Positions 5,633 through 29,274 are shown, numbered from the stretch's first letter. The stretch is 64,000 bases of DNA from Gammaproteobacteria bacterium (GCA_965209035.1 OZ242372.1:576001-640000), one strand, 5' to 3'. The notes: generated from the sequence alone by a model not told the origin. Numbers and translations: made by a program.

Positions 5633-6033
5633 TATTCAATCATTTAACTAACTGCCTAACCGCCTAATCGCCCAGCCGCCAAACCGCCCGACTTCCCTGC
5701 ACAGTCACCGCCCGGCAAACTATTGAAGCGGGGACAAAAGATCCTCGGCATCAATCGGGACTTCCCGCACAGCCATCGCCCGGCACAAAGAATTGGCAAT
5801 GACAGCACCGGTTCTCTCTTGCCGGTTCTCTTGCATCTCAACAGCCAAAGTGAGCACTTGGGTTTGATGACGAGTTCCCCGAACATCCGGCTCCGTCCCT
5901 TCAACTTGCTTTTGCATCGCTGTCTTTGTGATAGGGGCCCTCAAAAAGATAACTCAGAATTTTTATTCTGCTCATAAAAGTTAAAGTAATTTATGAGATA
6001 TCCCGGTAACCACTTTAGAAATGAACCGAATTA

Positions 6034-8331: not shown

Positions 8332-8409
8332 TTCATTTTTTAATATATCCTTTAAATTTTAATATTGGCGGTTCTATCTAAAACAAAACAGAAACTCATC
8401 TTTGGTAAA

Positions 8410-11787: not shown

Positions 11788-13448
11788 TATTTTTGTACTT
11801 TGTCTTGACTATTCTCATCATCTGACTCGATAAACATTACCTTAACATCCACTCCTTTTGTCTTCAAATTTGTTAAGGTCTTTTTAATTGATATTTGAGA
11901 GAAAAACGGTAAGTCCGTCAATTTTTTTCTCTGCTTTATTCCTTTCTTAAAAATAATCAAGTAATACACCTCGCACTTACTGGGACCGATATCTATTTCC
12001 GAAGATTTCATATTTTCTTCTTTCAATAAATCTTTAATAAATTCTAACTTTAAAAACTTGTCCCTTGATTCTTTAACTTGGGATAATAAATCATACGCAT
12101 TTTCTCCCTGAAAAAATAAGTGACTTAACCCATCCGAAGCTCTATATATTTTAATATGATAAAACCTATGTCTTTTTTCATCTAACATAGAGTAAACATC
12201 GCAAGGTTCAACTTGAGAAAGGTTTTCTGGAGCAATATTCTTTTTATCTAAACATCTACTTTTGTCTAAATAATTAGTAGCTAAATCTTCATTATAGGCA
12301 TTCTCGTTTTCGTGAGAATATTTGGGTTCCTTATCTCTTGGAATGATCCAATCACCCTTATCTAAGAATTCTTGTAATTTTTTTATATAAGATTCTTCTA
12401 CTTTATACCAGTCCCCGTTATACAAATAATATCGTTCATCCTCATATCGGACATCAAAAATAAAGCATTTACGAAATTTTAATTCCTTACCTATTTCATT
12501 GTCATCATTATCTACCCAGCACATACTGCTCTTATCTAATAAAATATCGTTATCCATTTCTTCCAACTGATCTCCAAAATACGCGTAGTAATTTTCCATA
12601 CTTAAATCGTTATAAGGCGATGAATATTTTTTCTTTGACCTTTTAAATCGTGTTTTTAAGTTCCGCCAATGATTATCCCATAGATCAGGAAAGTTCAGAT
12701 CCACTTGTTCATCGCGGCTTTTAACTGCCCTCACCAACAAATCATTTAGTTTAGAAATTGTTTGCCTATCCTTCTCTTTGACGAAGTTGTGCATAAAAGG
12801 AAATTTTTTCTTATATGTTTCATCCCGGTATAGGTCCAACAATTTAGAACATAAGTCATTAAGTTCTTTGGGACTGTATTTTGTTTGCATATGTAAACTA
12901 TCGGAACCGGCAGGATGTTGAAAATACTTTTTATACTTATCTTGAACATAACCAACCAAAGAATTAAAAACTTCTTGCTCTTCTTCCAAGTCAAAAAAAG
13001 CAAGGTTATTTGATCGCAATAGTTTGGTTGTACGCTGTATTCGCTGACCGGGAGAATGAGTCGATGCCATTCTTAATTTTTGTTCATCCACCGCATTTAA
13101 AGTGACTCTCAACCCAAAATCATTTTCATAAGAATCATTATTCAACTTATGAAAAGCATGTCCATGCGAAAACACAAAATATCTGTCATTTGATTTCCAA
13201 AAGATCAAAGCACCCGACATGACTCTTCTTGATTCTTCTTTGTCCTCATTAATGTTGCCCTTGTCAATTTTCCAGTAAGCAACCCACCAAGGATCAAGAA
13301 TAGATTTATCTTGAATATATATTTCAGTTCCCTCATACGGATGAGATGTATTAACTCTTTCCATCTCATGATCTTCAATTAATGAGTTCTCCGGTTCAAA
13401 TCCCAATTTCAAAAGATAAATTGAAAAACCACTGCTTTTTTTCTCCAT
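11787..13448 (-). CDS. TIGR04141/DUF6119-like sporadically distributed protein
   Basis: FSIYLLK N-terminus, FGLRVTLN, E..YN, VEPCD...HIK...LSHLFFQG, LPFFSQI motifs; lies between hsdS and hsdR. Confidence 0.7.
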   Translation of the reverse strand: MEKKSSGFSIYLLKLGFEPENSLIEDHEMERVNTSHPYEGTEIYIQDKSILDPWWVAYWKIDKGNINEDKEESRRVMSGALIFWKSNDRYFVFSHGHAFHKLNNDSYENDFGLRVTLNAVDEQKLRMASTHSPGQRIQRTTKLLRSNNLAFFDLEEEQEVFNSLVGYVQDKYKKYFQHPAGSDSLHMQTKYSPKELNDLCSKLLDLYRDETYKKKFPFMHNFVKEKDRQTISKLNDLLVRAVKSRDEQVDLNFPDLWDNHWRNLKTRFKRSKKKYSSPYNDLSMENYYAYFGDQLEEMDNDILLDKSSMCWVDNDDNEIGKELKFRKCFIFDVRYEDERYYLYNGDWYKVEESYIKKLQEFLDKGDWIIPRDKEPKYSHENENAYNEDLATNYLDKSRCLDKKNIAPENLSQVEPCDVYSMLDEKRHRFYHIKIYRASDGLSHLFFQGENAYDLLSQVKESRDKFLKLEFIKDLLKEENMKSSEIDIGPSKCEVYYLIIFKKGIKQRKKLTDLPFFSQISIKKTLTNLKTKGVDVKVMFIESDDENSQDKVQK

Positions 13449-13460
13449 TGTTATTTCCTC

Positions 13461-14684
13461 TTAACCTTCCTTCACGACCACTTGCCATTTTCCCGTTAAT
13501 AGTTTCTCCATAAGGGATTTCTTTTGCAAGTGGTATTTATCTTTAATTTTTCTAAGTAGTTCTATTTCTTTCTTACATTTATTTAATCCTTGCACTATCT
13601 CATTTTGCTCTATTACAGAGGGTATAAACATCTCAATAGAGCCAAGATCAGAAAACCGTAATACTTGCCGAACGCTGCCTTGAGTGCTATTTCTTATCCG
13701 CATACGTGCTTCATGCGAAGATAGCCAATGCAAAAAGAAATCGGAAACTACTTTTGTTTCATCCACAGAAAAAATAACATACATAGGACTAACAATACCT
13801 CGATCCCAATTATCTAATCGAGCAATAGATCCTACATTTATTCTTGCAGGATTGTAGCTGTACTGTCCCCTGCACACCATCTTATAATTGGTCAGATTTA
13901 TGCTTGCCACCCGCCGTAAAAATTGCTCTTGTGCCAGGACAAATCCGTTTTTATTTGTTACACTTAATACTCTATCCACCTGATTGTCTTTATTACGAAT
14001 AGAAATCTCGGTCAGAGCATCTTGTAGTTTTATCTTTTTTCTCTTAGGCGAGCCAGTGCCAGTTACCAACTTTTGCACAAGGTACTTGAAATATTTTTCC
14101 TTCGCTTCTATTAACTTCTCAGTCTTTTGAATGGCTTGATCCCAGGTGGATAGGATGGCAACTATTTTCTTTTGGTCCGATAGTGGTGGAAAAATTAACA
14201 CAACTTTTTTAATGTCTTTGGCATACAAGTGAACGATGGTTATACCTTGTGCGTATATTGCAATTTCTTTCTTTTTTATGTGTGTAAGATAGAATGCCAA
14301 AAAAACAGGGTCATACTCAATTAAGTTTTTAGACCTAATAATATTTACATCTGCTCCCAATAACACATCATCTTCCAATAAGGCGGTAGCATTCGCCAAA
14401 TCTAATGCAATAGTTGTGGTTGAGCCGGGCAATAAAACATCCCCCGTTTTGGAAGAAATACCCTTTTTGAGATTGGTATGACTCTGCACTGTTGAAATAA
14501 CCTCAGAATACTTCGTATACAATTCACCGTAAAGAATACATTTATACTTACCCTCTTTATCGAGATGAGATTTTAATAATGTATTTCCGCGAAACACCTC
14601 TGCCACATCACCTACCGCTGCTTTTTTCCACTTTGATTGTAATTTAACTTTTTCCATTTTATTGGCCTTATCTTTTTTACTCAT
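13461..14684 (-). CDS. hsdS: Type I R-M specificity subunit
   Basis: Two TRDs with conserved spacers PPLSDQKKIVAILSTWD and PSVIEQ...KKSLMEKLLTGK. Confidence 0.93.
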   Translation of the reverse strand: MSKKDKANKMEKVKLQSKWKKAAVGDVAEVFRGNTLLKSHLDKEGKYKCILYGELYTKYSEVISTVQSHTNLKKGISSKTGDVLLPGSTTTIALDLANATALLEDDVLLGADVNIIRSKNLIEYDPVFLAFYLTHIKKKEIAIYAQGITIVHLYAKDIKKVVLIFPPLSDQKKIVAILSTWDQAIQKTEKLIEAKEKYFKYLVQKLVTGTGSPKRKKIKLQDALTEISIRNKDNQVDRVLSVTNKNGFVLAQEQFLRRVASINLTNYKMVCRGQYSYNPARINVGSIARLDNWDRGIVSPMYVIFSVDETKVVSDFFLHWLSSHEARMRIRNSTQGSVRQVLRFSDLGSIEMFIPSVIEQNEIVQGLNKCKKEIELLRKIKDKYHLQKKSLMEKLLTGKWQVVVKEG

Positions 14685-14719
14685 ATTTCAATTGCAATAA
14701 ACCATTTTTTCTAAATCAT

Positions 14720-14761
14720 AAAAGGATGCGGAGGAAGCGAATGCTCCCGCCGAATCCTTTT
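14720..14761 (-). terminator. Imperfect hairpin, putative intrinsic terminator after the GIY-YIG gene
   Basis: aaaaggat-gcggag...ctcccgc..atcctttt inverted repeat; T-rich tail on the minus strand. Confidence 0.5.
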
Positions 14762-14766
14762 CGGTT

Positions 14767-15072
14767 TTATCTTTCACCACAAGATGGCTTGAATACAGTC
14801 CGAGTTGATTGTTCCACAATATCTCTGTCCGCTTTGGAATCAACATAGTAGACATAGATATTATCCTCATTAGAGGACCAGCCATTTTGTTTCCAACAAT
14901 CTTCACGATCGTGATCGCTCAAACGATCTGCGAGTGTTTCAGATTGACCAACATCTACAACTTTCGTACCTGCATTGTCATAGACAACATAGACACCCGG
15001 CTGATTTCCAATAGCACCACTATCCTTTTGAAAGGGTCCCTCAAAAGAATAGCCTAATATATTTTTTGTCAT
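14767..15072 (-). CDS. Small stand-alone GIY-YIG nuclease
   Basis: PGVYVVYD...VVDVGQSETLADRLSDH...IVE; ATG at 15072 preferred over the upstream TTG. Confidence 0.7.
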   Translation of the reverse strand: MTKNILGYSFEGPFQKDSGAIGNQPGVYVVYDNAGTKVVDVGQSETLADRLSDHDREDCWKQNGWSSNEDNIYVYYVDSKADRDIVEQSTRTVFKPSCGER

Positions 15073-15196
15073 AATGATTATTATTAATGATTTGTTAATA
15101 TAGGTTCGGCATAGGTCAAAGTCAAACATTGCCCATACCTATTATTCAAAGAAGTTCCCCTCTCCAAATTCGTTTTACTTTTCCGTAAGAGTACTT

Positions 15197-16762
15197 TCAT
15201 TTCTTCGCCGAGTTTTGTTTCTCAAGTTCTACCAGATGCTCTTTCATTTCGGCACGGACGGTTGTCAGTTGCGTTTCCAATTCTTCTATCTCCAGTTGCA
15301 ACTTATGCGGATCCTGCACTTCATCTTCTTTGTATGTATCCACATAGCGCGGGATGTTTAAGTTATAGTCATTAACCTCTATATCCTTCGGGCTGGCAAG
15401 GTAAGCATAGCCGGGAACACTTTTTCTCTTTTTACGGGTTTCAAGAATCTTGCCAATATGCTCGTCTGCGATACTGTTTTGGTTCTTCCCGGCATCAAAA
15501 TCACGCGAGGCATCTATAAACAAAACATCTTTACGATCCGCATTAACACCGCCGGGTTGGCGCGACTTGTCAAATACAAGAATCGTCACAGGAATACCGG
15601 TACTTTGAAACAGGTTTGACGGCAAGCCAACGACAGTATCCAGCAGATTGTCCTCTATGACACTGCGGCGAATTCGCCCTTCCGATGCCCCGCGAAACAG
15701 AACACCATGCGGGACAATAACCGCCACTCGCCCTTTTTGCGGAGTGGCGGCCGCTATCATATGGGATAAAAACGCCCAGTCCCCTCTGCCATCTGATGGC
15801 ACTCCTCGGTGAAAGCGACCATACCTGTCATCTTCTACCTGGCCGGCACCCCAATTTTTTAACGAAAACGGCGGGTTGGCAACAATGACCTCAAACTTTA
15901 ACAAGTCGTCTCCGTCTTTTAACTGAGGGTCCGTAAGAGCATTGCATTTCTCCAGCCGGGCATCGTTTGTGTTTGGTAAGGCACTGAGCAGAAAGTTCAT
16001 GCGTGCCATAGCCCAAGTATTGTTATTGATTTCCATACCGGCAAGTCTGTAATTTTTTGTGCCGAATTGTTTGTATAACACGCGGGCCGCCTCCAGCAGC
16101 AAGGAGCCGGAACCACATGCCGGGTCGCAAATTTTGTCACCTGCAACCGGCGCGGCAAGGCGGGCTACCAGTTCTGATATCTTGTGCGGGGTGTAAAATT
16201 CGCCCGCCTTCTTACCGGCATCCGAAGCAAAACGCTCTATAAGGTAAATGTAAGAATTGCCAATAATATCATCGGAGATTTCGTCCTTGCCAAAATCGGG
16301 TAAACGGTTAAATCCTTCCAAAAGTTTTCTCAGCCGGCTGTTGCGATCGCGGGTTTCGCCCAAGTTTTCGTCGCTATTGAAATTCACATTACTAAAAATA
16401 CCTTCAAACTTGTCGCTGTTTGCCGTTTCTATCTTGCGAAGTTTTTTGTTGATTTGGTCACCGATATCGTCGTCGTTTCTGGCTTCATACAAAGAATGGA
16501 AATCACACTCTTCCGGTATGCGCCAATCTTCCAATTCCAACATCCTGGCGACAACTCCGGGTTTATCTCCGTGTTCGCTTTGAATCGTTTTTTTGTGCTT
16601 GGCGAATACATCCGAAATATATTTCCAAAACAAGGTGACCAGGATGTAGTCCTTGTATTGAGTCGGATCCATAGGACCGCGAAAAGTATCGCATGCCGAC
16701 CAAACAATGCGATTGATGTCGGCGGAGGCGATTGTTTTTTTCTCTTGATTTTTATTGTTCAT
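15197..16762 (-). CDS. hsdM: Type I R-M methyltransferase subunit
   Basis: GEFYTP, DPACGSG, ANPPF, PHGVLFRG, YNLNIPRYV. Confidence 0.96.
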   Translation of the reverse strand: MNNKNQEKKTIASADINRIVWSACDTFRGPMDPTQYKDYILVTLFWKYISDVFAKHKKTIQSEHGDKPGVVARMLELEDWRIPEECDFHSLYEARNDDDIGDQINKKLRKIETANSDKFEGIFSNVNFNSDENLGETRDRNSRLRKLLEGFNRLPDFGKDEISDDIIGNSYIYLIERFASDAGKKAGEFYTPHKISELVARLAAPVAGDKICDPACGSGSLLLEAARVLYKQFGTKNYRLAGMEINNNTWAMARMNFLLSALPNTNDARLEKCNALTDPQLKDGDDLLKFEVIVANPPFSLKNWGAGQVEDDRYGRFHRGVPSDGRGDWAFLSHMIAAATPQKGRVAVIVPHGVLFRGASEGRIRRSVIEDNLLDTVVGLPSNLFQSTGIPVTILVFDKSRQPGGVNADRKDVLFIDASRDFDAGKNQNSIADEHIGKILETRKKRKSVPGYAYLASPKDIEVNDYNLNIPRYVDTYKEDEVQDPHKLQLEIEELETQLTTVRAEMKEHLVELEKQNSAKK

Positions 16763-16774
16763 GATTTAATAGTT

Positions 16775-17713
16775 TTATTTCTGTTCCTCTAAATAATAAT
16801 CGTGTCGGACAAAGTTCATTAACTTGCCTTGAATATACTCTTCCCGCTTGGCCGTCAATTGTTTGGTCAGTTGTTTTTGTTTGATAAGCAATTTATTGAT
16901 TGCCCCGATATCGCGTTGCCTTCTAATTGAAGGAATAAGAACGCGCATCTTGCCCAATATTTTCAAAGTGACTTGTCGCAATAAAGTTCCTTCCGAATGT
17001 CTTATCAGAAATCTTTGCACCAAGGGACTGTTAATGAACCAATGAAGGTAATGCGGAATTAAAGATTCCATATCTCTAATGCGAATTCTGACAAGTGGCA
17101 GTGCAAATACGGTGTCTTCGGGAACATCGCCGCCGACCAAAACAGCCCGGTAGTTATTGCCTCTGGTTTTTAGCAGGATATCCCCCGAACGCAGTGCGTA
17201 GTTTTTTAAGATGTCTTGGCGACGCTTCCGCTTTTCTTCGGGTGTGTAAGTATCCCATTTGTGTTGAACAATGGTTCTTCTCGCCGTAGAACTATGTCGG
17301 TTGATGTTTCTGCCATATTCCAAATAATCTTTCTCACCCCCGCGATCGGACAAATAGCGGACACGATGCAGCATAATTTCCCCGATCCTTTTCATATCTA
17401 TCGTGTCGTCTGTTGTGATATCTCGCATGAGTATCGTCCGCATATAGTCACCCGGCAATGGTGAACCCTCCTGTCGAAAACCTGCTCTAACAACACCGGG
17501 ATATAACGACAACCCGCCCTTGATCTCAGCGACCTTCCCCAAAAAATCTTCCGAGAGTGCTTCTGTGCTACCAGTATCTATTTGTAACATACTCTTATTA
17601 TAGTTAAGAAAATATAAATTATAACGATTTTCTTTACTTTTATACACTTTTATAAAAATAAAGTCATTACTATTATAATCTAAAAGCATCTTCTTTGTTC
17701 GCCTCTTCTGCAA
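16775..17713 (-). CDS. HsdS-like half subunit (single TRD); start uncertain
   Basis: LRSGDILLKTRG, YLHWFINSP, IPSIRRQRDI + coiled coil; directly upstream of hsdM. Confidence 0.7.
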   Translation of the reverse strand: MQKRRTKKMLLDYNSNDFIFIKVYKSKENRYNLYFLNYNKSMLQIDTGSTEALSEDFLGKVAEIKGGLSLYPGVVRAGFRQEGSPLPGDYMRTILMRDITTDDTIDMKRIGEIMLHRVRYLSDRGGEKDYLEYGRNINRHSSTARRTIVQHKWDTYTPEEKRKRRQDILKNYALRSGDILLKTRGNNYRAVLVGGDVPEDTVFALPLVRIRIRDMESLIPHYLHWFINSPLVQRFLIRHSEGTLLRQVTLKILGKMRVLIPSIRRQRDIGAINKLLIKQKQLTKQLTAKREEYIQGKLMNFVRHDYYLEEQK

Positions 17714-17774
17714 TTAAACTGAGAACAATAATCTCTCTGCTATAAAATACACTAATTACTATCAATCACTACAA

Positions 17775-18920
17775 ATGAACGAAACTAAATCTCCCGATTG
17801 GGGGCCATTGCGGTCAAAGGCAGAAAAACTTCCCGCCTTGCCGGTATCGGAGCGGCAACCGCCCACTTTGATAGAGGTTACCGGCTATCAGGCCAAGGAG
17901 AATTTTTGTAGCAATATACTGGCATTCTTTTTTCAAACCGATGCGGAGCATGATATGGGCGACCTGGTGGTGTCTTCCCTGCTCGAGGCGGTCTCGGCAA
18001 AAGGTGACGGCACAGATATTGCAACCGATGACATCAAGGTTAACAATGTTGCAAGAGAATATCTCACAGATGACGGCAAACGCATAGACCTGTTAATTGA
18101 AACGCGCCGACATATCATCGGCATAGAAAACAAAATATACGCCTGGGCTTATAACGATTTTGAGGAATACGAAAAAACTATAAAAGATCTTGCCGCCAAT
18201 GATTTTGGCAGTGCTGCCAAACGACAGCCAGTTTGTGTTTTACTCAGCCCTTATGAGCAGAAAAAACACAAAAGTTTTATTCCGATTACCTATGATGATT
18301 TTTTTGAAAGAATTGAGAAGAAACTGGGCAAGTATGCTACGGCTGCGAATCCGGAATATCTACAATTTTTATTACACTTTATAAGAACAATACAAAATAT
18401 CACTATGAACGATAAAAAAAACAGCCAATTTAAAGAGGAAATGAAAGCGGTTCTCGAGAAAAAAGAGAACACCAAAGAAATCACAGATTTTTTTGAGAAA
18501 TGCACAAGGTATAAAGGGATGTTGGATCAAAGTCTCTTGAGCACAGAACATCTAAAACACTTCGAGGAGAAGCAGCCGAACATCATTAACACTTGGATCC
18601 ATCGAAAGCAGACTCTTGTTATAGATTGTAATTATGATAAACAGAGCCCTACTCTTGCCATAGACATATGGACTTGTTTTCCCGATCATGCGGATATGGC
18701 TATATTCTTCAGAAAGAATAATTGGGAGGAAAGGTTAAGGTCTTTTCTCAACAATTATGCGTTGGATAAAAAATTTGAGATGGATGAAAACATCGGCAGG
18801 TTTCGGATAAAGGAACCCATCCCCATCAATGAAATAACTGACGAGAACAATGCTTTGGGCGACCTGATAAAAGCCCTTTTCAAAGAACACGAAACAAAAG
18901 CGAAGCAGGCAAACGAATGA
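17775..18920 (+). CDS. PD-(D/E)XK nuclease (PDDEXK_4-like), array copy 1
   Basis: KENFCSNILAFF, REY...KRIDLLI...IGIENKIYA. Confidence 0.8.
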   Translation: MNETKSPDWGPLRSKAEKLPALPVSERQPPTLIEVTGYQAKENFCSNILAFFFQTDAEHDMGDLVVSSLLEAVSAKGDGTDIATDDIKVNNVAREYLTDDGKRIDLLIETRRHIIGIENKIYAWAYNDFEEYEKTIKDLAANDFGSAAKRQPVCVLLSPYEQKKHKSFIPITYDDFFERIEKKLGKYATAANPEYLQFLLHFIRTIQNITMNDKKNSQFKEEMKAVLEKKENTKEITDFFEKCTRYKGMLDQSLLSTEHLKHFEEKQPNIINTWIHRKQTLVIDCNYDKQSPTLAIDIWTCFPDHADMAIFFRKNNWEERLRSFLNNYALDKKFEMDENIGRFRIKEPIPINEITDENNALGDLIKALFKEHETKAKQANE

Positions 18921-18977
18921 CCTTTGGTTTGGTGCAATTCAAATATTCTGTTTCGCTATAAGTTATAAATCAAAATT

Positions 18978-20156
18978 ATGGACGAAATTCTAATTGCCAG
19001 ATGGACGGAATTGCTACGGAAGGCGGAAGCCGAAGGGATTCTTTCTTTGGGGACAGTGGAACAACCACCGACTTTTATAGAGATCACCCGCCACCAGAGA
19101 AAAGAGAATTTTTGTAGCAATATATTAGCATTCTTTTTTAAAACAGGCGCCCAACATCATCTCGGTGATCTGTTGGTATCTTCTTTGCTTGAAGTATATA
19201 AAGAAAAAAGCCCGGATGATAATTTTGCGACCGAGGGCATAGAAGTTGTCAATGTTAGCAGAGAGTACAGCACGGATGAAAGAAAACGCATAGACCTGCT
19301 GATAAAAACCAGAAGACATGTCATCGGCATAGAGAACAAAATATATGCCGATGCCTATAACAACGATTTTAAGAATTATGAGAAAACTATAAGAGAGGTT
19401 GCCTCAAACTATTTGGATGATTCTTCCAAACTAAAACCTGTTTATGTGATACTTAGCCTTAATAAGCAAGAACAACATGAAAATTTTATTCCGATTACTT
19501 ACGATGAATTTTTTAAAAAAATTGAAAAGAACTTGGGTAAGTATGTGATGGATGCAAATCCAAAATACCTACCTTTTTTATTAGACTTTATAAAGACAAT
19601 ACAAAATCTAACTATGAACAACGAACTTAATCAAGAAATACAAGAATTTCTACAAAAAGAAAAAGACAATGTGGAAAAAATAGAACAACTTACCGATGCC
19701 ATTCAAAAGTATAAGGAGCATCTCAGGGAACGACTGATAGGAGATAAAAAATTATTAGAACATTTCAATAAAAAATCTGACATCATCGGTGCAGATTGGA
19801 AGAACGGCACAGGAGGTAAGAAAAAATATATTTACATCGGTTTTAAGGAAAGGATTGATCAAGACCACACACACTTTGGGATAGATCTTTTTCATTGCTT
19901 ACCTGCTAGCGTAACTATTGATGTATTTCTCCACAAAAAAGATTGGTCTTTGGAACATTCGGAATGGACAAAGAAACTCTTGCGTGATTCTTCTCTGGAA
20001 AAAGAATTTAAAGTGTCAGAAAAGGACGAAAATAAATTCCGAATAAAAGAATCAATTCCTATGGATAAAATAACAAATGAGGACAATGTTCTCGACAGGT
20101 TGATAAAAGCTATTCTCAAAGAATACGAAACAAAAGCGAAACAGGCCGGCGAATGA
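18978..20156 (+). CDS. PD-(D/E)XK nuclease (PDDEXK_4-like), array copy 2
   Basis: Same motifs; N-terminal ~212 aa nearly identical to copy 3. Confidence 0.8.
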   Translation: MDEILIARWTELLRKAEAEGILSLGTVEQPPTFIEITRHQRKENFCSNILAFFFKTGAQHHLGDLLVSSLLEVYKEKSPDDNFATEGIEVVNVSREYSTDERKRIDLLIKTRRHVIGIENKIYADAYNNDFKNYEKTIREVASNYLDDSSKLKPVYVILSLNKQEQHENFIPITYDEFFKKIEKNLGKYVMDANPKYLPFLLDFIKTIQNLTMNNELNQEIQEFLQKEKDNVEKIEQLTDAIQKYKEHLRERLIGDKKLLEHFNKKSDIIGADWKNGTGGKKKYIYIGFKERIDQDHTHFGIDLFHCLPASVTIDVFLHKKDWSLEHSEWTKKLLRDSSLEKEFKVSEKDENKFRIKESIPMDKITNEDNVLDRLIKAILKEYETKAKQAGE

Positions 20157-20216
20157 CATTCGGTTTGGTGCAATTCAAATATTCTGTTTCGCTATAAGTT
20201 ATAGATAAAAGAAATA

Positions 20217-21380
20217 ATGAACGAAATTCTAATTGCCAGATGGGCGGAATTGCTGCGGAAGGCGGAGGCCGAAGGGATTCTTTCTTTGGAGACAGTGGAA
20301 CAGTCACCAACTTTTATAGAGATCACCCACCACCAGAGAAAAGAGAATTTTTGTAGCAATATATTAGCATTCTTTTTTAAAACAGGCGCCCAACATCATC
20401 TCGGTGATCTGTTGATATCTTCTTTGCTTGAAGTATATAAAGAAAAAAGCCCGGATGATAATTTTGCGACCGAGGGCATAGAAGTTGTCAATGTTAGCAG
20501 AGAGTACAGCACGGATGAAAGAAAACGCATAGACCTACTGATAAAAACGAGAAGACATGTCATCGGCATAGAGAACAAAATATATGCCGATGCTTATAAC
20601 AACGATTTTAAGAATTATGAGAAAACTATAAAAGAGGTTGCCTCAAACTATTTGGATGATTCTTCCAAACTAAAACCTGTTTATGTGATACTTAGCCTTA
20701 ATAAGCAAGAACAACATGAAAATTTTATTCCGATTACTTACGATGAATTTTTTAAAAAAATTGAAAAGAACTTAGGCAAGTATGTGATGGATGCAAATCC
20801 AAAATACTTTCCATTTTTATTAGACTTTATAAAGACAATACAAAATTTAACTACAGACAATAAATTTATTCAAGAAATGCAAGACTTTCTACAAAAAGAA
20901 AAAAATAATGCGAAAAAAGCACAAAATTTTATTGATGTACTTCAAGAGTATAAAGAGCACCTCAGAGAACGACTTATAAGTGATAAAAACTTAAAATACT
21001 TCAACGATAAATCTGATATCATCAATGCCTCCCTATGGGGTACTGTCCCCCGTAAACGGAATAAGAGAAAATACATTTATATAGATTTTGAGGAAAAGTT
21101 TGATCAAAGCCGCCCTACTTTTGCCATAGACCTCTTGGATTGTTTACCGGACAATGTAATTATTGATGTGTTTTTTCGCGAAGAAAAAAGAGGGCCAGGA
21201 TATCCGGAACGGACGAAAAATCTCTTGCACAAATTTTCTCTTTTGGAAGAATTTAAAATACCGGAACATGATAATAATAAATTCCGAATAAAAGAATCAA
21301 TTCCTATGGATGAAATAACAAATGAGGACAATGTTCTCGGCAAGTTAATAAACGCCCTTCTCAAAGAATACGGAGAATAA
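20217..21380 (+). CDS. PD-(D/E)XK nuclease (PDDEXK_4-like), array copy 3
   Basis: Same motifs; C-terminal half divergent from copy 2. Confidence 0.8.
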   Translation: MNEILIARWAELLRKAEAEGILSLETVEQSPTFIEITHHQRKENFCSNILAFFFKTGAQHHLGDLLISSLLEVYKEKSPDDNFATEGIEVVNVSREYSTDERKRIDLLIKTRRHVIGIENKIYADAYNNDFKNYEKTIKEVASNYLDDSSKLKPVYVILSLNKQEQHENFIPITYDEFFKKIEKNLGKYVMDANPKYFPFLLDFIKTIQNLTTDNKFIQEMQDFLQKEKNNAKKAQNFIDVLQEYKEHLRERLISDKNLKYFNDKSDIINASLWGTVPRKRNKRKYIYIDFEEKFDQSRPTFAIDLLDCLPDNVIIDVFFREEKRGPGYPERTKNLLHKFSLLEEFKIPEHDNNKFRIKESIPMDEITNEDNVLGKLINALLKEYGE

Positions 21381-21539
21381 TAATAGTCCGGATAATTAAA
21401 ATTTAGAAAGAAAAACGCGCAGATCGGTTAATTAAAAAAATTGAAAAGAACCTTGGCAAGTATGCCTCAGACGCACACCCGGAATATCTACAATTTTTAT
21501 TATGCTTTATAAAGAATAAGGACAATACAAAGCCTGACT

Positions 21540-22043
21540 ATGGACAATAAACTTAAAGAAACAATGAAGACATTCCTTCAACAAGAAGGTAATACAGAAA
21601 AATCACAACTTCTTTTTGAGAAATGCAAAAGGTATGAAGAATATCTCATTGAAAATCTTACGAAAGAAGAAAATTTAAACTACTTTCGGAATAAGTCAAA
21701 TGATATTATTAAGATTGATGTCAGTAAATGGCAGGGAAATATCGGGATACATTGCAAGCCGAACAAAGGTATTATTCTTCCCACTTTTGTAATAGATATT
21801 ATGGGCACCTTTTTTCCATATCATGCCCGGATCATCCAAATATATTCCAAGGGAAAAAATAACCCGATTGGTTGGATCCCAAATTTCTTGCATAGGCAAG
21901 AGAAAAGATTATCCAAAAAGTTTAAGTACCAGGATCATAATAAATGTTTTTGGGCAACCGAGCCAATTCCCATTAATAAAATAACACACAAAGACGAACT
22001 ACCAACCAAGTTGATTAAAGCCTTTATCGCAGAATACGAATAA
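21540..22043 (+). CDS. Orphan C-terminal domain of the PD-(D/E)XK array (no nuclease domain)
   Basis: Begins at the hinge Met (MDNKLKE..) and ends EPIPINKIT...LIKAFIAEYE like copies 1-3; preceded by hinge-homologous DNA at 21434-21540. Confidence 0.75.
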   Translation: MDNKLKETMKTFLQQEGNTEKSQLLFEKCKRYEEYLIENLTKEENLNYFRNKSNDIIKIDVSKWQGNIGIHCKPNKGIILPTFVIDIMGTFFPYHARIIQIYSKGKNNPIGWIPNFLHRQEKRLSKKFKYQDHNKCFWATEPIPINKITHKDELPTKLIKAFIAEYE

Positions 22044-22128
22044 AAGAAATAACCCGGATAATCAAACTTGGAGTGAATAGTAAACAGACTCCAACAGTCC
22101 TCCTTTTCAGACCCCACCTCGCAATAAC

Positions 22129-22152
22129 GACAAACAGCAGTTTGTCTTGCTT
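22129..22152. terminator. Short hairpin between convergent genes
   Basis: GACAAAC-agca-GTTTGTC followed by a T-rich stretch. Confidence 0.3.
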
Positions 22153-22218
22153 TGGCGTTTAACCGTTTCGTGTATTAAAGGACGAAGCGGTTCGATTTTG
22201 TTTTTGTTTGTCCGGTTC

Positions 22219-22707
22219 TTAACTCTTGCCGCCGTCTTTTAAGGACACGGTCAAGCTGGCGGCATATTCGGCAAAGCCGAGTGTGTCTATCAGGTTTAAC
22301 TGGACATCCAGCCAATCCAGGTGCTTCTCTTCGTCGGCAAGAATATGCTCCAACATACGAGCGGTGATGAAATCACTCACCTTGTGGGCGGCGGTGATGC
22401 CTTCTTTATAGGAAGCGATTGCCGCGGTTTCCATCTTGCGTTGTTCCGCCAGGATTTCTTGCGGCTGTTGCACAAAATTGACCCCGCCCGGCAGGGACAT
22501 TTCGGGTTTCCCGTCCAGGAACAGGATTCTGTCCATTAGGGTTTGGGCGTGGTGCATCTCGTCGATGGCTTGACGCTTGATTTCCTCCGCCAGGCGAACA
22601 TATCCTGTGTGGTGCAGGACACGGGCATGGAGCATATAACTGTGCGTTGCGCCCAGTTCTTCGGAGAGAAGTTTGTTAAGGGTTTTGGTGAGTAAGTTGT
22701 TTTGCAT
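22219..22707 (-). CDS. bfr: Bacterioferritin
   Basis: EL.A...Y.LH, IDEMHHAQTLMDRILFLDGKP, DEEKHLDWL ferroxidase motifs. Confidence 0.93.
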   Translation of the reverse strand: MQNNLLTKTLNKLLSEELGATHSYMLHARVLHHTGYVRLAEEIKRQAIDEMHHAQTLMDRILFLDGKPEMSLPGGVNFVQQPQEILAEQRKMETAAIASYKEGITAAHKVSDFITARMLEHILADEEKHLDWLDVQLNLIDTLGFAEYAASLTVSLKDGGKS

Positions 22708-23357
22708 GATGATTTGACCTCTATATAGTTGATATGTAATTGATATGTAACTTATGTGTAATTGATAAATGATTTTAGTAATTGCAACATCTTATAGTTA
22801 AATTATAACTCGAATCGCCCGGATGTTTGCACGGATCTGTAAGGTTTGGAAATGCCGAACAGCGGGATGTTAAACAGTCAAACAGCCCCATAGCCCGGCA
22901 GCCGCCGGATACCGGTCGCCCCTTGAGATTGAGATGCTTTATTCGCTTTGTTCGCCTTGCTTCGCCGAACCTCCCCTCCCCCGCCGATACTTTGTTCGCC
23001 TTGCTTCGCCGAGCCTCCTCCATCCGCCATCCGATTGCCCGTCCGCCACTCCCCTGCCGTGCCCCCGCCCGTCTCCTGCTGGAGTGGGCACTCGCCGGCA
23101 AAAAACCGACGCAGGACCGGTACAGAGCCGGTAAAAAAACCGGCACAGGACCTGCAAAGAGCAGCCACAGAATCGCCACAACGCAAAATCACAAAAAATA
23201 CCCGCCGCACATATTGAAAGTGGGTTTGCGAATACTTATAATAAGAAGGGTATGCTAAATCTTTTGGCGGAGGTTTCCCGTCTCTCGTTGTTTTCTTAAC
23301 CGAGGATTCGGCATATTATCTTTTTATATTTGTTTTATATTTAATTTGTGAGGACCT

Positions 23358-24401
23358 ATGGAAGTGTTATCTGAATATTTGATCTTTTTACTAAAACTTG
23401 TAACCGTGATTGGCGGTTTTATGTTTGTCGTTATTTTTATTGCGAGTGTCGCCCGATCACGCAGTCGGTTTGGCAAGTCGCGCGAACCGGAACTTGAGGT
23501 GTCTAATCTCAATGATATGTTCGATCGGGTGTCTCTGCCGATTAAGTATCAACTGCTCTCTTCGAAAGAGCGCAAAGCCGAGAGCAAGCGCAGACAAAAG
23601 GAGCATAAGAAGAAACAAAAAAAGGTGACGGAGAAAAAGAAGATTGCCTATGTCATCGGGTTCACCGGTGATATACAAGCGTCTCAGGTGGACGATTTGG
23701 CGGTGACGATTTCTTCGCTAATCAATGTGGCAAAGGCGGGACAGGAGGTGATTTTGAAACTGGAAAGTGCCGGCGGCTTTGTGCATACCTATGGCTTGGC
23801 GGCGGCGCAGTTGTTGCGGTTGAAGGAGCATAAATTGAAACTGACGGTCTGCGTGGATCGGGTGGCCGCCAGCGGCGGCTATATGATGGCCGCGATGGGG
23901 GACAAAATCTGTGCGGCTCCTTTTGCCGTGGTGGGTTCTATCGGGGTGATCGGGCAGTTGCCGAACATTCACGAGTTTCTGCGGGAGCGGAATATAGACA
24001 TAGAACAGCATACGGCCGGCGAGTATAAACGCACTTTGACGATGCTGGGAAAAAATACTCCCAAAGGACGCAAGAAGTTTGTGGATGATCTGAACAGGGT
24101 GCATGAACTCTTTAAGAATCTCATTAAGAAATATCGGCCCGATTTGCCCTTAAAAAAGGTGGCGACCGGTGAGGTTTGGTTTGGCGAGGAGGCCTTGAAG
24201 TTAAATCTCGTGGACGAGGTGCTCACCAGTGACGCCTATCTTTTGAAGCAAACCGAAAAGGCGACGCTTTATGAAGTCAAGGTGAAAAAGAAAAAGCATC
24301 TGGCGAGTCGTTTGGGAGAGATGAGCGAGAGCATCGCCGACAGAATGATTAATCTGCTATTAACCAAGGCGACCAAGTTGCGTTTGTTCCCCAACGCGTG
24401 A
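23358..24401 (+). CDS. sohB: Inner-membrane peptidase S49 SohB
   Basis: N-terminal TM, LESAGG.V..YGLAA.QL, VAASGGYMMA, TAGEYKRTLT, ATGEVW. Confidence 0.93.
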   Translation: MEVLSEYLIFLLKLVTVIGGFMFVVIFIASVARSRSRFGKSREPELEVSNLNDMFDRVSLPIKYQLLSSKERKAESKRRQKEHKKKQKKVTEKKKIAYVIGFTGDIQASQVDDLAVTISSLINVAKAGQEVILKLESAGGFVHTYGLAAAQLLRLKEHKLKLTVCVDRVAASGGYMMAAMGDKICAAPFAVVGSIGVIGQLPNIHEFLRERNIDIEQHTAGEYKRTLTMLGKNTPKGRKKFVDDLNRVHELFKNLIKKYRPDLPLKKVATGEVWFGEEALKLNLVDEVLTSDAYLLKQTEKATLYEVKVKKKKHLASRLGEMSESIADRMINLLLTKATKLRLFPNA

Positions 24402-24570
24402 TGCTGACGATAGCACATATATAACAGAAGCGAAGCATAAAAGATAAAAGCGAAGCGACACAGATCCCGCACATATATACACACTTCCATAAATGGCAAA
24501 GGCAAAGCGGCAATATAATCAATAACGGAAAGACGCCAGCGGCATTGTGCCCGGCTTGGTCGCAATACGA

Positions 24571-25506
24571 ATGAAAGCAAACCAACAAAAAATCACAGAC
24601 CTACCCGATATCACCCAGGACAGTGTGGCATCCGAACCGGGCAGACTGAACTGGGTGGGGATGGAGCATATTGTCCTTCCTTTGAAGATTGAGGACTCCG
24701 TTCTCGGCATTCAACCAACCACCGGTAAGATTAATTGCTATGTGGATCTGCAGGATCCGAAGGCGCGTGGCATTCATATGTCGCGGATATATATCCTTCT
24801 AACGGAATCGAGTGAGAAAGAGATACTGACTTACCCCACTTTGCAAGAACTGACCGAGCGGATGATCCGCAAGCAGGATAACATCAGTTCGGCAACCAAA
24901 ATCGGGATTACATTTGACTTGTTTGTTCGCAAAAAATCATTGCTAAGCGACAATTCCGGCTGGTCCTGTTATCCGATACGGATTTGGATGCTAAATCGTC
25001 GCGGGAAAGTGTCTTGCCAGTTGGATATGCAGTTTATCTATTCTTCCACTTGCCCCTGCTCGGCGGCATTGGCGCGCCAACTGATTAGTCGCAAGTTTGC
25101 CGAACGCTTTCAAGAAACATCGACGCTGTCTGTGGAGGAAGGACAACAATGGTTGCAAGAGGCGGAAAAGGAAATCGCCACCCCGCACAGCCAAAGAAGT
25201 ATCGCCAAGATTAGTTTAATGATTGAGCCGTGCGAGGCATTCCCTCTTTGGGAACTGATTCGGAAGGCGGAAGAATCTTTGAAGACAGCAGTGCAGTTAG
25301 TTGTGAAGCGGGAGGACGAGCAGCAGTTTGCCCGTCTGAACGGGGAAAATTTAATGTTTTGCGAGGATGCCGCCCGCTCTTTGCGGAATGCGTTTGCCGA
25401 TTATACGGAGCGCGGTTTTTACATCAATGTCCGTCATTTGGAAAGTTTGCATCCGCACGATGCGGCGGCAATTGTGCGAAACGGACATTTAATTTCGCAC
25501 AGTTAA
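24571..25506 (+). CDS. folE2: GTP cyclohydrolase I type 2
   Basis: LPDI, RGIHMSR, YSSTCPCS, ATPHSQRS, VKREDEQ, NLMFCEDAAR, ESLHPHDA. Confidence 0.93.
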   Translation: MKANQQKITDLPDITQDSVASEPGRLNWVGMEHIVLPLKIEDSVLGIQPTTGKINCYVDLQDPKARGIHMSRIYILLTESSEKEILTYPTLQELTERMIRKQDNISSATKIGITFDLFVRKKSLLSDNSGWSCYPIRIWMLNRRGKVSCQLDMQFIYSSTCPCSAALARQLISRKFAERFQETSTLSVEEGQQWLQEAEKEIATPHSQRSIAKISLMIEPCEAFPLWELIRKAEESLKTAVQLVVKREDEQQFARLNGENLMFCEDAARSLRNAFADYTERGFYINVRHLESLHPHDAAAIVRNGHLISHS

Positions 25507-25516
25507 GCACCGGGTT

Positions 25517-26299
25517 TTAGAACTCGTTACGCCACAGACGCAGGGCGGCAAACACCTCCACCGGATCGGATAACTTCAGATCCCGCAGTTCTTCCATCTT
25601 CTCGCGGACATCCGAGCGGTCGGCACGCAAGAAGGGATTGGTTGCCAATTCTTCCGCCAGGGTGATCGGGGCGGCGATGCCGTTATGTTCCGAGAGACGT
25701 TTTTGGGTTTCTTCCAATCGCTGTTTCAAGGCATCGTTATTCGGCTCTATCCGACTGGCAAACGCCAGGTTGGCGGTCGTGTATTCGTGTCCCCAGTATA
25801 GCAAGGTTTCCGGCGGCAACTGAGCGCACTTTTGCAAGGTTGCGTGCATTTGCTCCGCGGTCCCTTCAAACACTCTGCCGCAGCCGCAACCAAAGAGGAC
25901 ATCACCGCAAAAGAAATGTTTCTTATCGGCGATAAAACCAATATGGTCCAAAGTATGGCCGGGCAGCGAAAGCACCTCAAAATGAATACCCGCTCTGTCA
26001 AACGCATCACCTTCGGTGAAGGCCTGGGTGATGCTTTCAATCTTCTCGTTTTCGGGCCCCAGCACCGGGCAGTGATACTCGGCAATAATATCTTCAATCC
26101 CCGCCGTATGGTCGCCGTGATGATGGGTGATAAGAATGCTGTCCGGCCGCAGGTTGTTCTTTTGCAGATACTCCAATATGGGGCGACTCTTGCCGGGGTC
26201 AACCACCACCACATTCTTGTCGTCCGCCGAAGAGGCCAACAGCCAGAAGATGTTGGCGCCGCTCTCCTCTCTGTCTTTAATACCGATTACATTTGTCAT
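25517..26299 (-). CDS. gloB: Hydroxyacylglutathione hydrolase
   Basis: THHHGDHTAG, PGHTLDH, CGDVLFGCGCGR, HEYT, TNPFLR. Confidence 0.93.
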   Translation of the reverse strand: MTNVIGIKDREESGANIFWLLASSADDKNVVVVDPGKSRPILEYLQKNNLRPDSILITHHHGDHTAGIEDIIAEYHCPVLGPENEKIESITQAFTEGDAFDRAGIHFEVLSLPGHTLDHIGFIADKKHFFCGDVLFGCGCGRVFEGTAEQMHATLQKCAQLPPETLLYWGHEYTTANLAFASRIEPNNDALKQRLEETQKRLSEHNGIAAPITLAEELATNPFLRADRSDVREKMEELRDLKLSDPVEVFAALRLWRNEF

Positions 26300-26455
26300 T
26301 TCATTTGCTTTTATGTTTTTGTATATTTTTTATGTGTGTGTTTATTATACTCTATCCGTGAGTGGCATCCAAAATTTGTCGGGGTACTTCGGAAGTTTTT
26401 TCAATTCTCAGTTAAAACCTTGGCAAGATTTTGCCAAACTTGTGTCAAAGCCTTA

Positions 26456-27569
26456 TCAAACCTCCGCCCAACTTTTATCAAATTTTGTCTCATCTAAAAA
26501 GTGCAAGGATAATTTGGGGGATGCCTTGCTTTTAATCATATTCTCAATTAAGTATAGCCCTGCCGTATTCGGGTTCGGGTTTTGCCCTGCCGGGTCCGCC
26601 ATAGCGGCGAGACGCGGAAAGTCGTAACAGCGGGACACCCGATAAGTCTTGCGCAAAGGAGCAAAGTAATCCGCATCATTGGGTTTCCAGAGATTGGAAG
26701 CCACATAGATATCCGTACCGGGCGGGAATTTTTTGACAAGTTGCCGACACAGATCTTCGCCGGACAGAAAGTGCTTCAAAACAGGATAATACTTCGGGTT
26801 CCATTTTGCAATCATTCGCTCGGCATCGGCTTTGTCAAACTTTCTGTGATCGTCCCAAGGCAGCCGGCAACTCAAAAAGTGGTAGTGTCCGAGTTTGGCA
26901 ATCGTTTCACGGGCAATAGTTACGAGAGGCGCGGCTGTTTGTAAATACAATTCCGTCCGGCGATAAAAGTCGCAAAAGAGCGGTTTGGTTTTGATTTGGT
27001 ATGTTACCCGATCCGGCGGGTGCAAGTAGCGAACAATCAGAGGATGCTGTTTGTTTTGTTGGGCGGTGATCTCTTGTGTTTGAGGAACAAAATATGGCTG
27101 AAACGAGCCCGCCTTCGCCGGGAAATCTCGCATCGGGATGTAATCCAACTTTTTTCTTGCCGACTCGTTCTCGGTCAGATGGGATACCGGGAAAGAATAA
27201 TTCCACCAGTCTTCCCGAACCGGTCCGGCGGCATTCGTGACCGCATAGGATGCCGACAGATCATAATAGTCGCTAACGGAAGGATTGTCAGCCTTGCCAA
27301 AGTTGTGGACGGGGTCCGGTTCCAACGGAAAAACCACCGCAGTGCGGCCGAGATAAAGAGCCTCTTTAAGCAGGCATTCCTCCCGAGAACCGCATGTGGT
27401 CCGCCAAGATTTCGGGACTTGGGCCGCGGCTCAAACTCCCGCCGAGATCGTAACGAAGTTTCCGCAGAGTATCTTTGACAAACAGACTCGGTTTGCCGCG
27501 GCGCAGTTGGCGCAGTGCCTCTCGCCAGGGCGGGACAAAAGATGCATAACAAAGATAGCCGTTAGTCAT
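26456..27569 (-). pseudogene. Probable frameshifted O-fucosyltransferase-like (GT-B) glycosyltransferase
   Basis: MTNGYLCY...DHMRFS in one frame, then ECLLKEALYLGRTAVVFP...HN in the frame of ORF 26456-27337 (switch near 27385); later DIYVASN and LIENMIKSKA resemble O-FucT motifs. Confidence 0.45.
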
Positions 27570-27744
27570 TGATCCGATAGTTTTGATAGTTGCGATAGTT
27601 CCGATAGTTTCAATGCCTTTTCCGGCATCCGCGTACTCGCGAACAAGCCACATCCAAAACGCATCCCAAACGCATGCAAGGTGCATCCAAGCCGCATGCA
27701 AGATACCCCCAAGATGCATCCAAGGCGCCGGGAATATTAATAGA

Positions 27745-29274
27745 TTATGCCGATGCCCAATTCTTACTGCGTTCCACCGCCGCGTGCCATCGTTCCATCA
27801 GGGCGTCTCGCTCGGCGGCCGGCTGTCGCGGGCTGTAGGTCTTCTCGGTCCCGCCGAGGGCGGATAGCTCTTCGGTATCCTTCCACAGACCGCATGCCAA
27901 CCCCGCCAAATAGGCGGCACCCAGCGCGGTGGTTTCCTTGATGCGGGGGATCTGAACCGGCAAGCCGAGAAGGTCGGCCTGGATTTGCATCAATAGCGCA
28001 CTTGCCGTGGCGCCGCCGTCGGCACGCATGACAGTAATTTCCGTATCATCCGTATCGTCCGTATCGTCCGTATCGTCCGTATGATAGCCCCGCCGCATCG
28101 CGTCAACCAGATCCACGGATTGAAAGGCGATGCTCTCCAAAACGGCTCGTGCCAGATGTCCGGCGGTGGTGCCGCGGGTGATCCCGATCATCATCCCTCT
28201 TGCATTCGGATCCCAATGGGGCGCACCCAAACCGACAAAAGCCGGCACAAAATAAACGCCGCCGTTGTCTTTGGCGGCAAGTGTGTTAATTTCTTCGGCG
28301 GTTTTGATAAGACCCAGACCGTCACGCAGCCACTGAATGGCGGAGCCTGCCACAAAAACGCTCCCTTCCAGAGCATACACGGGCTTCTCGCCGGGCAACT
28401 GCCAGGCAATCGTTGTCAGCAGGTTGTGCGCGCTCAGTGCCGGCCGATGGCCCGTGTTCATCAGTGTGAAACAGCCAGTGCCGTAAGTGTTTTTGACCAT
28501 CCCCTCTTCAAAACAGGTTTGACCGAAGAGGGCCGCGTGTTGGTCGCCGGCAATACCGGCAATCGGCACGGAGGTTGCCCCAAACAGACCTGATTTTGTT
28601 TTGCCGCAAACACCGGAGGAAGCAACAACCTGCGGTAGGATGCCGGCTGGAATGTCAAACAACTCCAGCAGTTCTTCGTCCCATTTAAGCGTGTGAATAT
28701 TAAATAACAGGGTGCGCGCCGCATTGCCGATATCGGTGATATGTTCGCCGCCGGTGAGTTTGTAAATTAGCCAGGTATCTATGGTGCCGGCCGCCAGCCT
28801 GCCTTGTTTGGCAAGAGTGCGGGCATCGCGCACATTGTCAAGCAACCACTTCAATTTTGAGGCGGAGAAGTAAGGATCCGGTAACAGCCCGGTCTTTGCG
28901 GTAATCATCTCTTTTTGGCTCGCAAGACGGCGCATCAGATCCGAAGTGCGTTTGTCCTGCCAAACCAATGCCCGAGCCAAAGGTTCGCCGCTCTTTTTGT
29001 CCCAGATGGCAATGGTTTCGCGCTGATTGGTGATGCCGATGCCGGCGACATCTTGCATGCCCAATCCGGCGTCTTTTAATGCGGCCGCCACCGCGGCACA
29101 TTGGCTGTCCCATATCTCGTTGAGGTCGTGCTCCACCAGACCCGGAGCGGGGAAGTATTGGGGAAACTCCAACTGCCCCTGTCCCGCGCAGTTCGCTTTG
29201 CGGTCAAACAGCATTGCGCGGCTACTTGTTGTTCCCTGGTCCAACGCCAGGATGTGTTTGGGATTCGTTGCCAT
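27745..29274 (-). CDS. glpK: Glycerol kinase
   Basis: [40 protein letters not shown]. Confidence 0.96.

Follow-up and report, generated by a model that had tools for sequence, protein, structure and literature searches.

Why would a bacterium carry several copies of one nuclease gene side by side, two of them nearly identical over their first halves and very different over much of their second? The question is raised by a 64,000-nucleotide (nt) stretch from a Gammaproteobacteria bacterium (GCA_965209035.1 OZ242372.1:576001-640000; this whole stretch is called the window throughout), in which an earlier note had described positions 17775-22043 as an array of PD-(D/E)XK nucleases with exchangeable C-terminal domains and as a candidate defence system. 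The answer we favor, at somewhat better than even probability, is that a candidate anti-phage nuclease encoded by a single gene is present here in tandem, in three intact copies and a decayed fourth; the array is a recombinational mosaic in which the C-terminal part of each protein, here called the head, would set its specificity. The family is a known candidate in an unusual arrangement: a recombining tandem array with a mosaic at the level of domains. The open reading frame (ORF) map confirms, coordinates included, the three full genes and one C-terminal-only ORF in tandem that had been reported:

17775-18920, + strand: c1, intact paralogue of 381 amino acids (aa); N domain and hinge 17775-18404, variable middle 18405-18800, tail 18801-18917
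18978-20156, + strand: c2, intact paralogue of 392 aa; N domain and hinge 18978-19613, variable middle 19614-20036, tail 20037-20153
20217-21380, + strand: c3, intact paralogue of 387 aa; N domain and hinge 20217-20852, variable middle 20853-21281, tail 21282-21377
21540-22043, + strand: c4, ORF of 167 aa, C domain only

The gaps c1-c2, c2-c3, and c3-c4 are 57, 60, and 159 nt long, and the ORF map contains no + strand ORF of at least 60 aa in the gaps between copies.

The three full-length copies match PF14281 (PDDEXK_4) with expectation (E) values of 2e-19 to 4e-19 (69.7-70.8 bits, against a gathering cut-off of 22.3). They also match PDLC04975, the PADLOC model for the defence candidate PDC-S26 (E 9.5e-67, 4e-65, and 1.2e-61 for c1, c2, and c3). 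c4 has no PF14281 match in the Pfam scan, which reported matches at E up to 0.01, and no PDC-S26 match in PADLOC; NCBIfam and PHROGs return no match for any of the four. Of the 351 positions of PDLC04975, 14-344 are covered by c1, 14-346 by c2, and 13-306 by c3. Since c1 and c2 match this profile almost end to end, the C-terminal half is also part of the family, and several single-sequence family alignments likewise reach the end of the protein. Five residues (E43, D106, E119, K121, and Y134 in c2 numbering) are invariant in 150 aligned relatives including c1-c3, and c1-c3 carry the motifs KEN, RIDLL, and GIENK, none of which occurs in c4. We read E43, D106, E119, and K121 as the PD-(D/E)XK core, with the catalytic residues intact in all three full copies. 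The PF14281 match and the invariant catalytic residues thus support the assignment of c1-c3 to the PD-(D/E)XK nucleases, and the listing of the family as PADLOC candidate PDC-S26, with a full-length profile match, supports its description as a candidate defence system. The family is large, with 1753 representatives in a library clustered at 50% identity (E up to 0.001), and the part of the source that covers PF14281 lists it as of unknown function (PMC3424549).

The AlphaFold2 model of c2 (predicted local distance difference test score [pLDDT] 92.5, predicted template modelling score [pTM] 0.83) places the nuclease core at residues ~30-175. Two long helices follow (198-227 and 231-255), which form a long helical hairpin and the first of which is the hinge. 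The head then begins with a sheet of four strands and its helices (270-337), after which come a short strand region and the C-terminal helix that is the tail (371-389). As modelled, each intact protein is an N-terminal PD-(D/E)XK nuclease, a hinge, and a C-terminal head. A fold search with the N part of c2 finds a 200-aa phage PD-(D/E)XK protein (E 3.6e-11, template modelling [TM] score 0.73 on the target), and the whole model has weak matches in the PDB, nearly all of them to PD-(D/E)XK nucleases (best E 2.6e-3). The head is an alpha/beta domain of ~180 aa (pLDDT 78.8 when modelled alone). The heads of the different copies are diverged variants of one homologous domain without a known fold, not unrelated modules: the family profiles match the C-terminal parts over their full length, and these parts are therefore old variants of one domain and not the different exchangeable domains of the earlier note.

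Several resemblances were set aside. Structural similarity to DR_1245 and type III secretion chaperone-like folds recurs at a weak level (TM 0.34-0.41) that falls short of significance, and it carries no weight here. The nearest named clusters in an atlas search with the C domain (bilin reductase, DUF3841, and DUF4268) score 0.84-0.91, within the range of chance, and a profile search of PDB sequences returns chance-level coiled-coil matches only (best E 0.018).

The evidence for a mosaic comes chiefly from c2 and c3, which share a homogenised tract:

18921-19613, + strand: tract copy A, comprising the c1-c2 spacer, the c2 N domain, and the hinge
20157-20852, + strand: tract copy B, comprising the c2-c3 spacer, the c3 N domain, and the hinge

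The two copies are 96.0% identical over 693/696 nt, with 25 mismatches and 3 gap columns. Past the tract, c2/c3 identity drops to 62-80% per 50-nt window; it returns to 98% in a 50-nt tail block (20042-20091 vs. 21287-21336) and is then lower again. This bears out the near-identity through the upstream DNA to the hinge, the sharp divergence, and the reconvergence that had been noticed earlier. On the c2/c3 alignment (1375 columns, 228 differences) the maximum chi-square method places a break at 19665 in c2 and 20904 in c3, and none of 1000 permutations reaches the observed maximum. As proteins, c2 and c3 have an identity of 0.96 over the N part and of 0.83 over the tail, but of 0.51 over the middle.

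The rates of synonymous (dS) and non-synonymous (dN) change divide the genes in the same way. Between c2 and c3, the upstream N part (212 codons) has a dS of 0.10 and the tail one of 0.17, against 1.00 for the middle. Sliding-window dS stays at 0-0.16 as far as residue 180 and reaches 1.1-2.0 over residues 241-337; a dS of about 1 or more is near saturation, and the alignment of the middle contains gaps. The sliding-window comparison that the earlier note had proposed therefore shows a divergence that is stepped along the two genes. A ten-fold step in dS implies segments of different age, and hence recombination rather than fast protein evolution after one duplication. dN/dS is 0.16 in the N part, 0.31 in the middle, and 0.38 in the tail, and does not exceed 0.76 in any 40-codon window. 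On these values the variable part represents old divergence and not fast recent change, and they give no sign of diversifying selection between the copies in support of a diversifying domain. The ~700-nt tract (spacer, nuclease domain, and hinge) and the short tail block have been copied recently between c2 and c3, and the conserved-variable-conserved layout reflects recombination at hinge and tail.

The relationship of c1 to c2 and c3 is old throughout (N-part dS ~1.07). What c1 has in common with c2 is limited to the extreme 3′ end (ETKAKQA..E) and the spacer downstream of it. c3 lacks this extension and resembles c4 in its short 3′ end and flank; there are thus two types of extreme 3′ end and flank, one in c1 and c2 and the other in c3 and c4. 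Together with the differing ages of the segments, this makes the array a patchwork with its junctions in the conserved hinge and tail. Since all copies are in direct orientation, exchange can proceed only by conversion or unequal crossover.

Phylogenies of the two domains point the same way. The closest full-length relatives are 43-56% identical (BLASTP with c2). In the N-domain tree, from which the truncated protein P0014 was omitted, c2 and c3 are sisters (support 100/99). In the C-domain tree, c2 joins P0003 (100/99) within a clade of c2, c3, P0003, and P0004 (99/98), the c1 head groups with P0006-P0014 (84/84), and c4 falls weakly with P0013 on long branches (82/80). The two trees disagree, and the heads of c2 and c3 are nearest to P0003 and P0004, which come from another contig. 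The recombinational origin of the mosaic proposed by the earlier note is borne out by this conflict and by the step in dS.

As a simple measure we used the identity ratio (1-mid)/(1-N), calculated from the protein identities of the middle and of the N part. Old pairs have ratios of 1.4-1.9, and the c2-c3 pair 13.0. The 21 pairs within P0006-P0012 all show excess divergence in the middle, with ratios of 2.2-10.2 (N 0.87-0.98, middle 0.49-0.89). The ratio is 1.0 for c2-P0003 and 0.9 for c3-P0004, so that in these pairs the heads are at least as alike as the nuclease domains. The heads are old, distinct lineages, two of which have their nearest relatives in a three-copy set on another contig.

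P0003, P0004, P0013, and a glycerol kinase (GlpK) 96% identical to that of the window (487/509) each have 18,864 nt reported as the length of their longest contig. The window carries its own gene to the right of the array:

27745-29274, - strand: glpK (glycerol kinase)

A contig of that length would have room for the span between array and glpK as it is in the window (17775-29274). The contig very probably belongs to a close relative, which would then have three array genes in the vicinity of glpK, each sharing only about half of its residues with c1-c3; the linkage of these genes is deduced from the equal size of their source contig alone.

The window's GlpK contains a 13-letter protein run, and at precisely this point its 96%-identical homologue (P0218) lacks 9 residues, which indicates a variable triplet-codon repeat in a housekeeping enzyme.

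The fourth copy differs from the others in being incomplete. Upstream of it lies a trace of the missing part, visible in the sequence, among the direct repeats, and in the alignment of hinge ends:

21432-21512, + strand: hinge remnant, 81 nt, reading IKKIEKNLGKY..FLLCFIK, out of the c4 frame

This remnant is 78-81% identical to the hinges of c1-c3, with which it makes up direct-repeat family D5 (four copies). Homology to the nuclease domain ends at ~21425-21431, the deletion junction upstream of c4, and a 7-nt insertion (~21513-21519) follows the remnant upstream of the c4 ATG and puts it out of frame. The deletion junction and the frameshifted remnant suggest that c4 is most likely what remains of a fourth full gene after a 5′ deletion and a frameshift in the hinge. 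The earlier statement that all four copies share hinge and tail and differ in their middles therefore holds for c2 and c3, applies in much weaker form to c1, and fails for c4, whose ORF has no hinge. The c4 head is a distinct type, 32-38% identical to every other C domain seen, including the heads of c1-c3, and no full-length protein with a head of this type was found. A word-based search for stand-alone relatives of 91-293 aa, which can miss distant ones, returned c4 itself as the only match among 71 candidates.

How would such an array arise, and what would it do? We propose an origin by tandem duplication, followed by gene conversion or unequal crossing-over that broke in the conserved hinge and tail. 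The head would determine what each nuclease responds to or cuts, whether a DNA feature, a modification, or a phage trigger, and several heads on one catalytic scaffold would give a wider range of defence. Both the defence function and the head-determined specificity of c1-c3 are predictions. Their logic resembles that of the END proteins, which the relevant part of the source describes as single-gene defence nucleases consisting of a PLD nuclease and an inactivated EndoIII reader, with a C-terminal domain that sets substrate specificity; swaps of this domain between homologues were used to locate the specificity determinant (PMC12191111). c1-c3 are likewise single-protein nucleases with a C-terminal domain, for which a comparable role is predicted. 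They differ in that the nuclease is of the PD-(D/E)XK type and the head has no known reader fold; in particular, no modified-base reader domain of the kind found in type IV restriction enzymes is recognisable in it, either in the PDB or in Pfam across 62 C domains.

c2 and c3 offer a ready-made comparison that would show whether the head sets specificity: their nuclease domains are nearly the same (8.0 estimated non-synonymous differences over 212 codons, Nei-Gojobori method), and the middles of their heads are 51% identical. If it does, the locus would show a single-protein defence nuclease diversifying by recombination between old head lineages, and would explain how the copies at one site can differ so much in a close relative. 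For all its size, PDC-S26/PDDEXK_4 has a candidate role only, and the array gives an experimental entry to this family.

A number of observations weigh against this reading, the near-saturated dS of the middle region and the dependence of the glpK linkage on contig size among them. No function can be assigned to the head: its model matches nothing in the PDB better than E 0.27, Pfam gives no family common to the 62 C domains scanned, and the look-alikes in the atlas search with the C domain are unnamed clusters. dN/dS below 1 in every region leaves the comparison of c2 and c3 without a direct signature of diversifying selection. We found no experimental work on the PF14281/PDC-S26 family in the literature, and PDC-S26 receives a passing mention in the text available. 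Arrays are atypical of the family. Among 80 related loci from species-representative genomes (all of species other than the window's own; best identity 41%), neither a further copy nor a head ORF on its own occurs in the flanking DNA covered. Distant relatives occur in 47 plasmid records, at a single place in 25/25 of the records listed (25 of the 47). We also classed the 4 nearest ORFs in the 36 fully flanked loci (144 ORFs) by reading their Pfam names; about 11 of these loci lie among housekeeping genes, and the survey, which has no background rate, is descriptive only.

The alternative that survives best, a possibility that we place well short of even, is neutral concerted evolution. Conversion would homogenise the conserved 5′ part, where the likeness of the sequences permits it, while the less constrained C part drifts; the diversity of the heads would then have no adaptive meaning, and c4 would be junk. 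The low dN/dS values agree with this (0.16-0.38 by region), as do the single-copy state of the 80 other loci and the two lesions in c4. The C part is the least conserved region family-wide, and the divergence of the middle in old pairs exceeds that of the N part by a factor of only 1.4-1.9, which is expected of a less constrained domain. Drift accounts less well for the 21/21 pairs within P0006-P0012 with excess divergence in the middle, or for c2 and c3 heads that are nearest to the copies of another contig and not to each other. The head types have moreover been kept as intact ORFs, and the catalytic residues are intact in all three full copies.

A stronger form of the reading that we favor is more speculative, and we consider it rather improbable as it stands: the locus would be a head-swapping defence array, in which one PD-(D/E)XK scaffold acquires, by recombination at constant junctions in hinge and tail, old heads that set recognition and are drawn from a pool shared across the population. 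If so, the set of heads at this chromosomal site would be entirely different from one close relative to the next, and c4 and other truncated copies would be what exchange has left behind or holds in reserve. The array would amount to an HsdS-like shuffle of specificities built into a single-protein nuclease. In the exchange of HsdS target-recognition domains, a variable block lies between conserved blocks where recombination breaks, giving new combinations. The array has the same arrangement of a variable block flanked by conserved, recombination-prone blocks. It differs in that the block is within the nuclease protein itself, that inverted repeats are absent and all copies direct, and that Pfam finds no Methylase_S domain in c1-c4.

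Could the head instead restrain the nuclease? We think it unlikely that these are toxins like the Rpn (YhgA-like) proteins, held in check by their own C domain and perhaps also by a product of an internal start or of c4, the divergence of the heads serving to keep toxin and inhibitor paired. The layout does parallel that of Rpn proteins. For RpnL and RpnS, the part of the source concerned with their organization describes an N-terminal PD-(D/E)XK nuclease joined to a C-terminal domain of high variability, arrays formed by tandem direct duplication, separate small genes for the C-terminal domain downstream of some rpn genes, and enrichment in defence islands (PMC10400941). To the extent of that description, the array shares a variable C domain on a PD-(D/E)XK nuclease, the tandem arrangement, a downstream ORF for the C domain only (c4), and a defence island. 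The Met at which the c4 ORF begins is, moreover, the one found after the hinge in c1 and c2.

The differences are nevertheless considerable. c1-c3 match PF14281 only and c4 matches nothing, so that neither the Rpn families nor DUF4351 are found in the Pfam scan at E up to 0.01. The head is a ~180-aa alpha/beta domain, much larger than a small three-helix bundle, and its variation consists of old divergent lineages, whereas that described for Rpn proteins consists of four-residue repeats (PMC10400941). c3 has a Thr in place of the Met in question. No Shine-Dalgarno-like motif precedes any in-frame internal start, although the annotated starts lack one too. c4, with its deletion scar and frameshifted hinge remnant, looks decayed and is only 32-38% identical to the heads of c1-c3, and no stand-alone relatives of it were found in the size range searched. 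By analogy, then, Rpn nucleases and nucleases with a specificity-setting C-terminal domain such as END provide the nearest described logic, and the array falls outside both groups.

It is also unlikely, in our estimate, that the family has no part in defence but serves a mobile element or DNA repair and recombination, its restriction-modification (R-M) neighborhood being incidental. The loci among housekeeping genes and the plasmid records would fit such a role, as would the failure to find experimental evidence of defence in the literature. In four Elusimicrobia loci (L072, L074, L078, and L080; ~5200-10460 in each), one conserved gene set surrounds the PDDEXK_4 gene: an N6_N4 DNA methylase, DUF5681 (2 of 4), the nuclease, a WYL/WCX/HTH regulator, and DUF2924. 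These four loci look like one mobile element with the gene inside it. On the other side stand the full-length match to a family that PADLOC lists as a defence candidate and the absence of any match in 50,697 phage records or in PHROGs. In the neighbor survey, 9/36 loci have clear R-M or defence neighbors (parts of type I R-M systems in 4 of the 9), and 3 more of the 36 are probable. The neighbor types in those 9 loci are BREX BrxA/B, DndB, HsdR, HsdS, HsdM, Mrr, GmrSD, AbiH, Eco57I/MmeI-type and N6_N4 methylases, and KAP and McrB-like ATPases.

The setting of the array itself also speaks for a defence role. It lies at the right end of a stretch (~6000-22100) with a guanine-plus-cytosine (GC) content of 31-47%, against 50-57% in most of the surrounding window, and this low-GC stretch, with its complete type I R-M operon and a gene of the OLD family, is a defence island. 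Divergent transcription of array and operon, as claimed earlier, is confirmed, the operon being on the - strand and 61 nt from c1:

8410-17713, - strand: type I R-M operon including an HsdS-like ORF, identified by matches in Pfam, NCBIfam, and PADLOC; transcription leads away from the array
8410-11787, - strand: hsdR, type I R-M
11787-13448, - strand: DUF6119/TIGR04141 gene, 553 aa (E 4e-108), between hsdR and hsdS
13461-14684, - strand: hsdS, type I R-M
14767-15129, - strand: ORF of 120 aa between hsdS and hsdM
15197-16762, - strand: hsdM, type I R-M
16775-17713, - strand: HsdS-like ORF, 312 aa, upstream of hsdM
17714-17774, no strand: 61-nt divergent spacer between the HsdS-like ORF and c1, the presumed promoter region of the array

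Some members of the operon and its surroundings deserve mention in their own right. The DUF6119/TIGR04141 protein ("sporadically distributed") has no PADLOC match, and the stop of its gene abuts the start of hsdR. The 120-aa ORF has weak matches only, one to PADLOC PDC-S14 (E 3e-4) and one to the GIY-YIG-like N-terminal region of UvrC (E 0.01). In the HsdS-like ORF, the C-terminal half alone resembles a single HsdS recognition domain and conserved helix (PADLOC Specificity_I, E 3e-12), and the first ~150 residues are without any match. Left of the operon, 3286-8115 holds further defence-island content and accessory genes: an IrrE/M78 peptidase-like protein with capP/RmrA-like matches in PADLOC (3286-4497), a YgjP-like metallopeptidase (4871-5632), and the OLD-family ATPase-TOPRIM gene (6034-8115).

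In polymorphic toxin loci (Rhs, CdiA) the constant part is a delivery device and the variable tip a toxin with its own immunity gene, and full genes are followed by 5′-truncated C-terminal pieces that keep homology at the junction. The array, too, has full genes followed by a 5′-truncated C-terminal piece with junction homology; its constant part, however, is the nuclease, and no immunity gene follows each variable tip, the gaps of 57-60 nt between the genes leaving no room for one.

Orphan toxin tips, like the silent cassettes of pilin antigenic variation, are copied into an expressed gene, and c4 might by the same token be a promoterless donor whose head is copied into an expressed copy through homology in the hinge and tail. 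We think this very improbable. c4 does keep an upstream hinge remnant and a recognisable tail, its head is a distinct fourth type, and recombination in the hinge demonstrably occurred between c2 and c3. Its longest exact matches to c1-c3, however, span 20-24 nt and are confined to the part of the hinge that precedes the 7-nt insertion, and the tail has none of at least 14 nt. A crossover in the hinge would therefore import the frameshift, which makes c4 a poor donor, and its type of head is on no full-length protein found. The notion of a designed cassette was discarded in favor of a degraded copy on the strength of the deletion, the frameshift, and the short homology. There are, in addition, no inverted-repeat pairs of at least 25 nt in 17600-22300 and no recombinase-like ORF adjoining the array (ORF map, Pfam). 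A phase-variable locus of the shufflon type was rejected on the same grounds, neither inverted repeats nor an adjacent site-specific recombinase being present.

That the near-identity of c2 and c3 is a mis-assembled repeat is scarcely credible: the two ~700-nt direct repeats do lie 1239 nt apart and were judged from the assembled sequence alone, but the tracts differ at 25 positions and 3 gap columns, the intact head ORF and the 3′ end that follow the one tract are not those that follow the other, and the proteins are reported in the protein database on a contig of 2,178,278 nt.

Signals for transcription were sought by consensus scans. The divergent spacer contains one promoter-like site (17719-17748); promoter-like sites in the region are no more frequent than in shuffled sequence (15 found, 17.5 expected), and terminator-like sites are not enriched over shuffles either. 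A single + strand hairpin of the terminator type lies in or just downstream of the array:

22129-22146, + strand: terminator-like hairpin after c4

Its position is compatible with one transcription unit. The Rfam scan gives no match in the whole window, and with the tRNA search it yields no rRNA or tRNA there.

Two further features lie outside the low-GC stretch that holds the array. At 155-2758 on the - strand is a gene for an 867-aa protein with thrombospondin type 3 repeats, an fn3 domain, and a GLUG motif, presumably a surface protein. At 52000-56000 a second low-GC stretch (0.40-0.44, vs. 0.50-0.60 around it) may be another acquired island.

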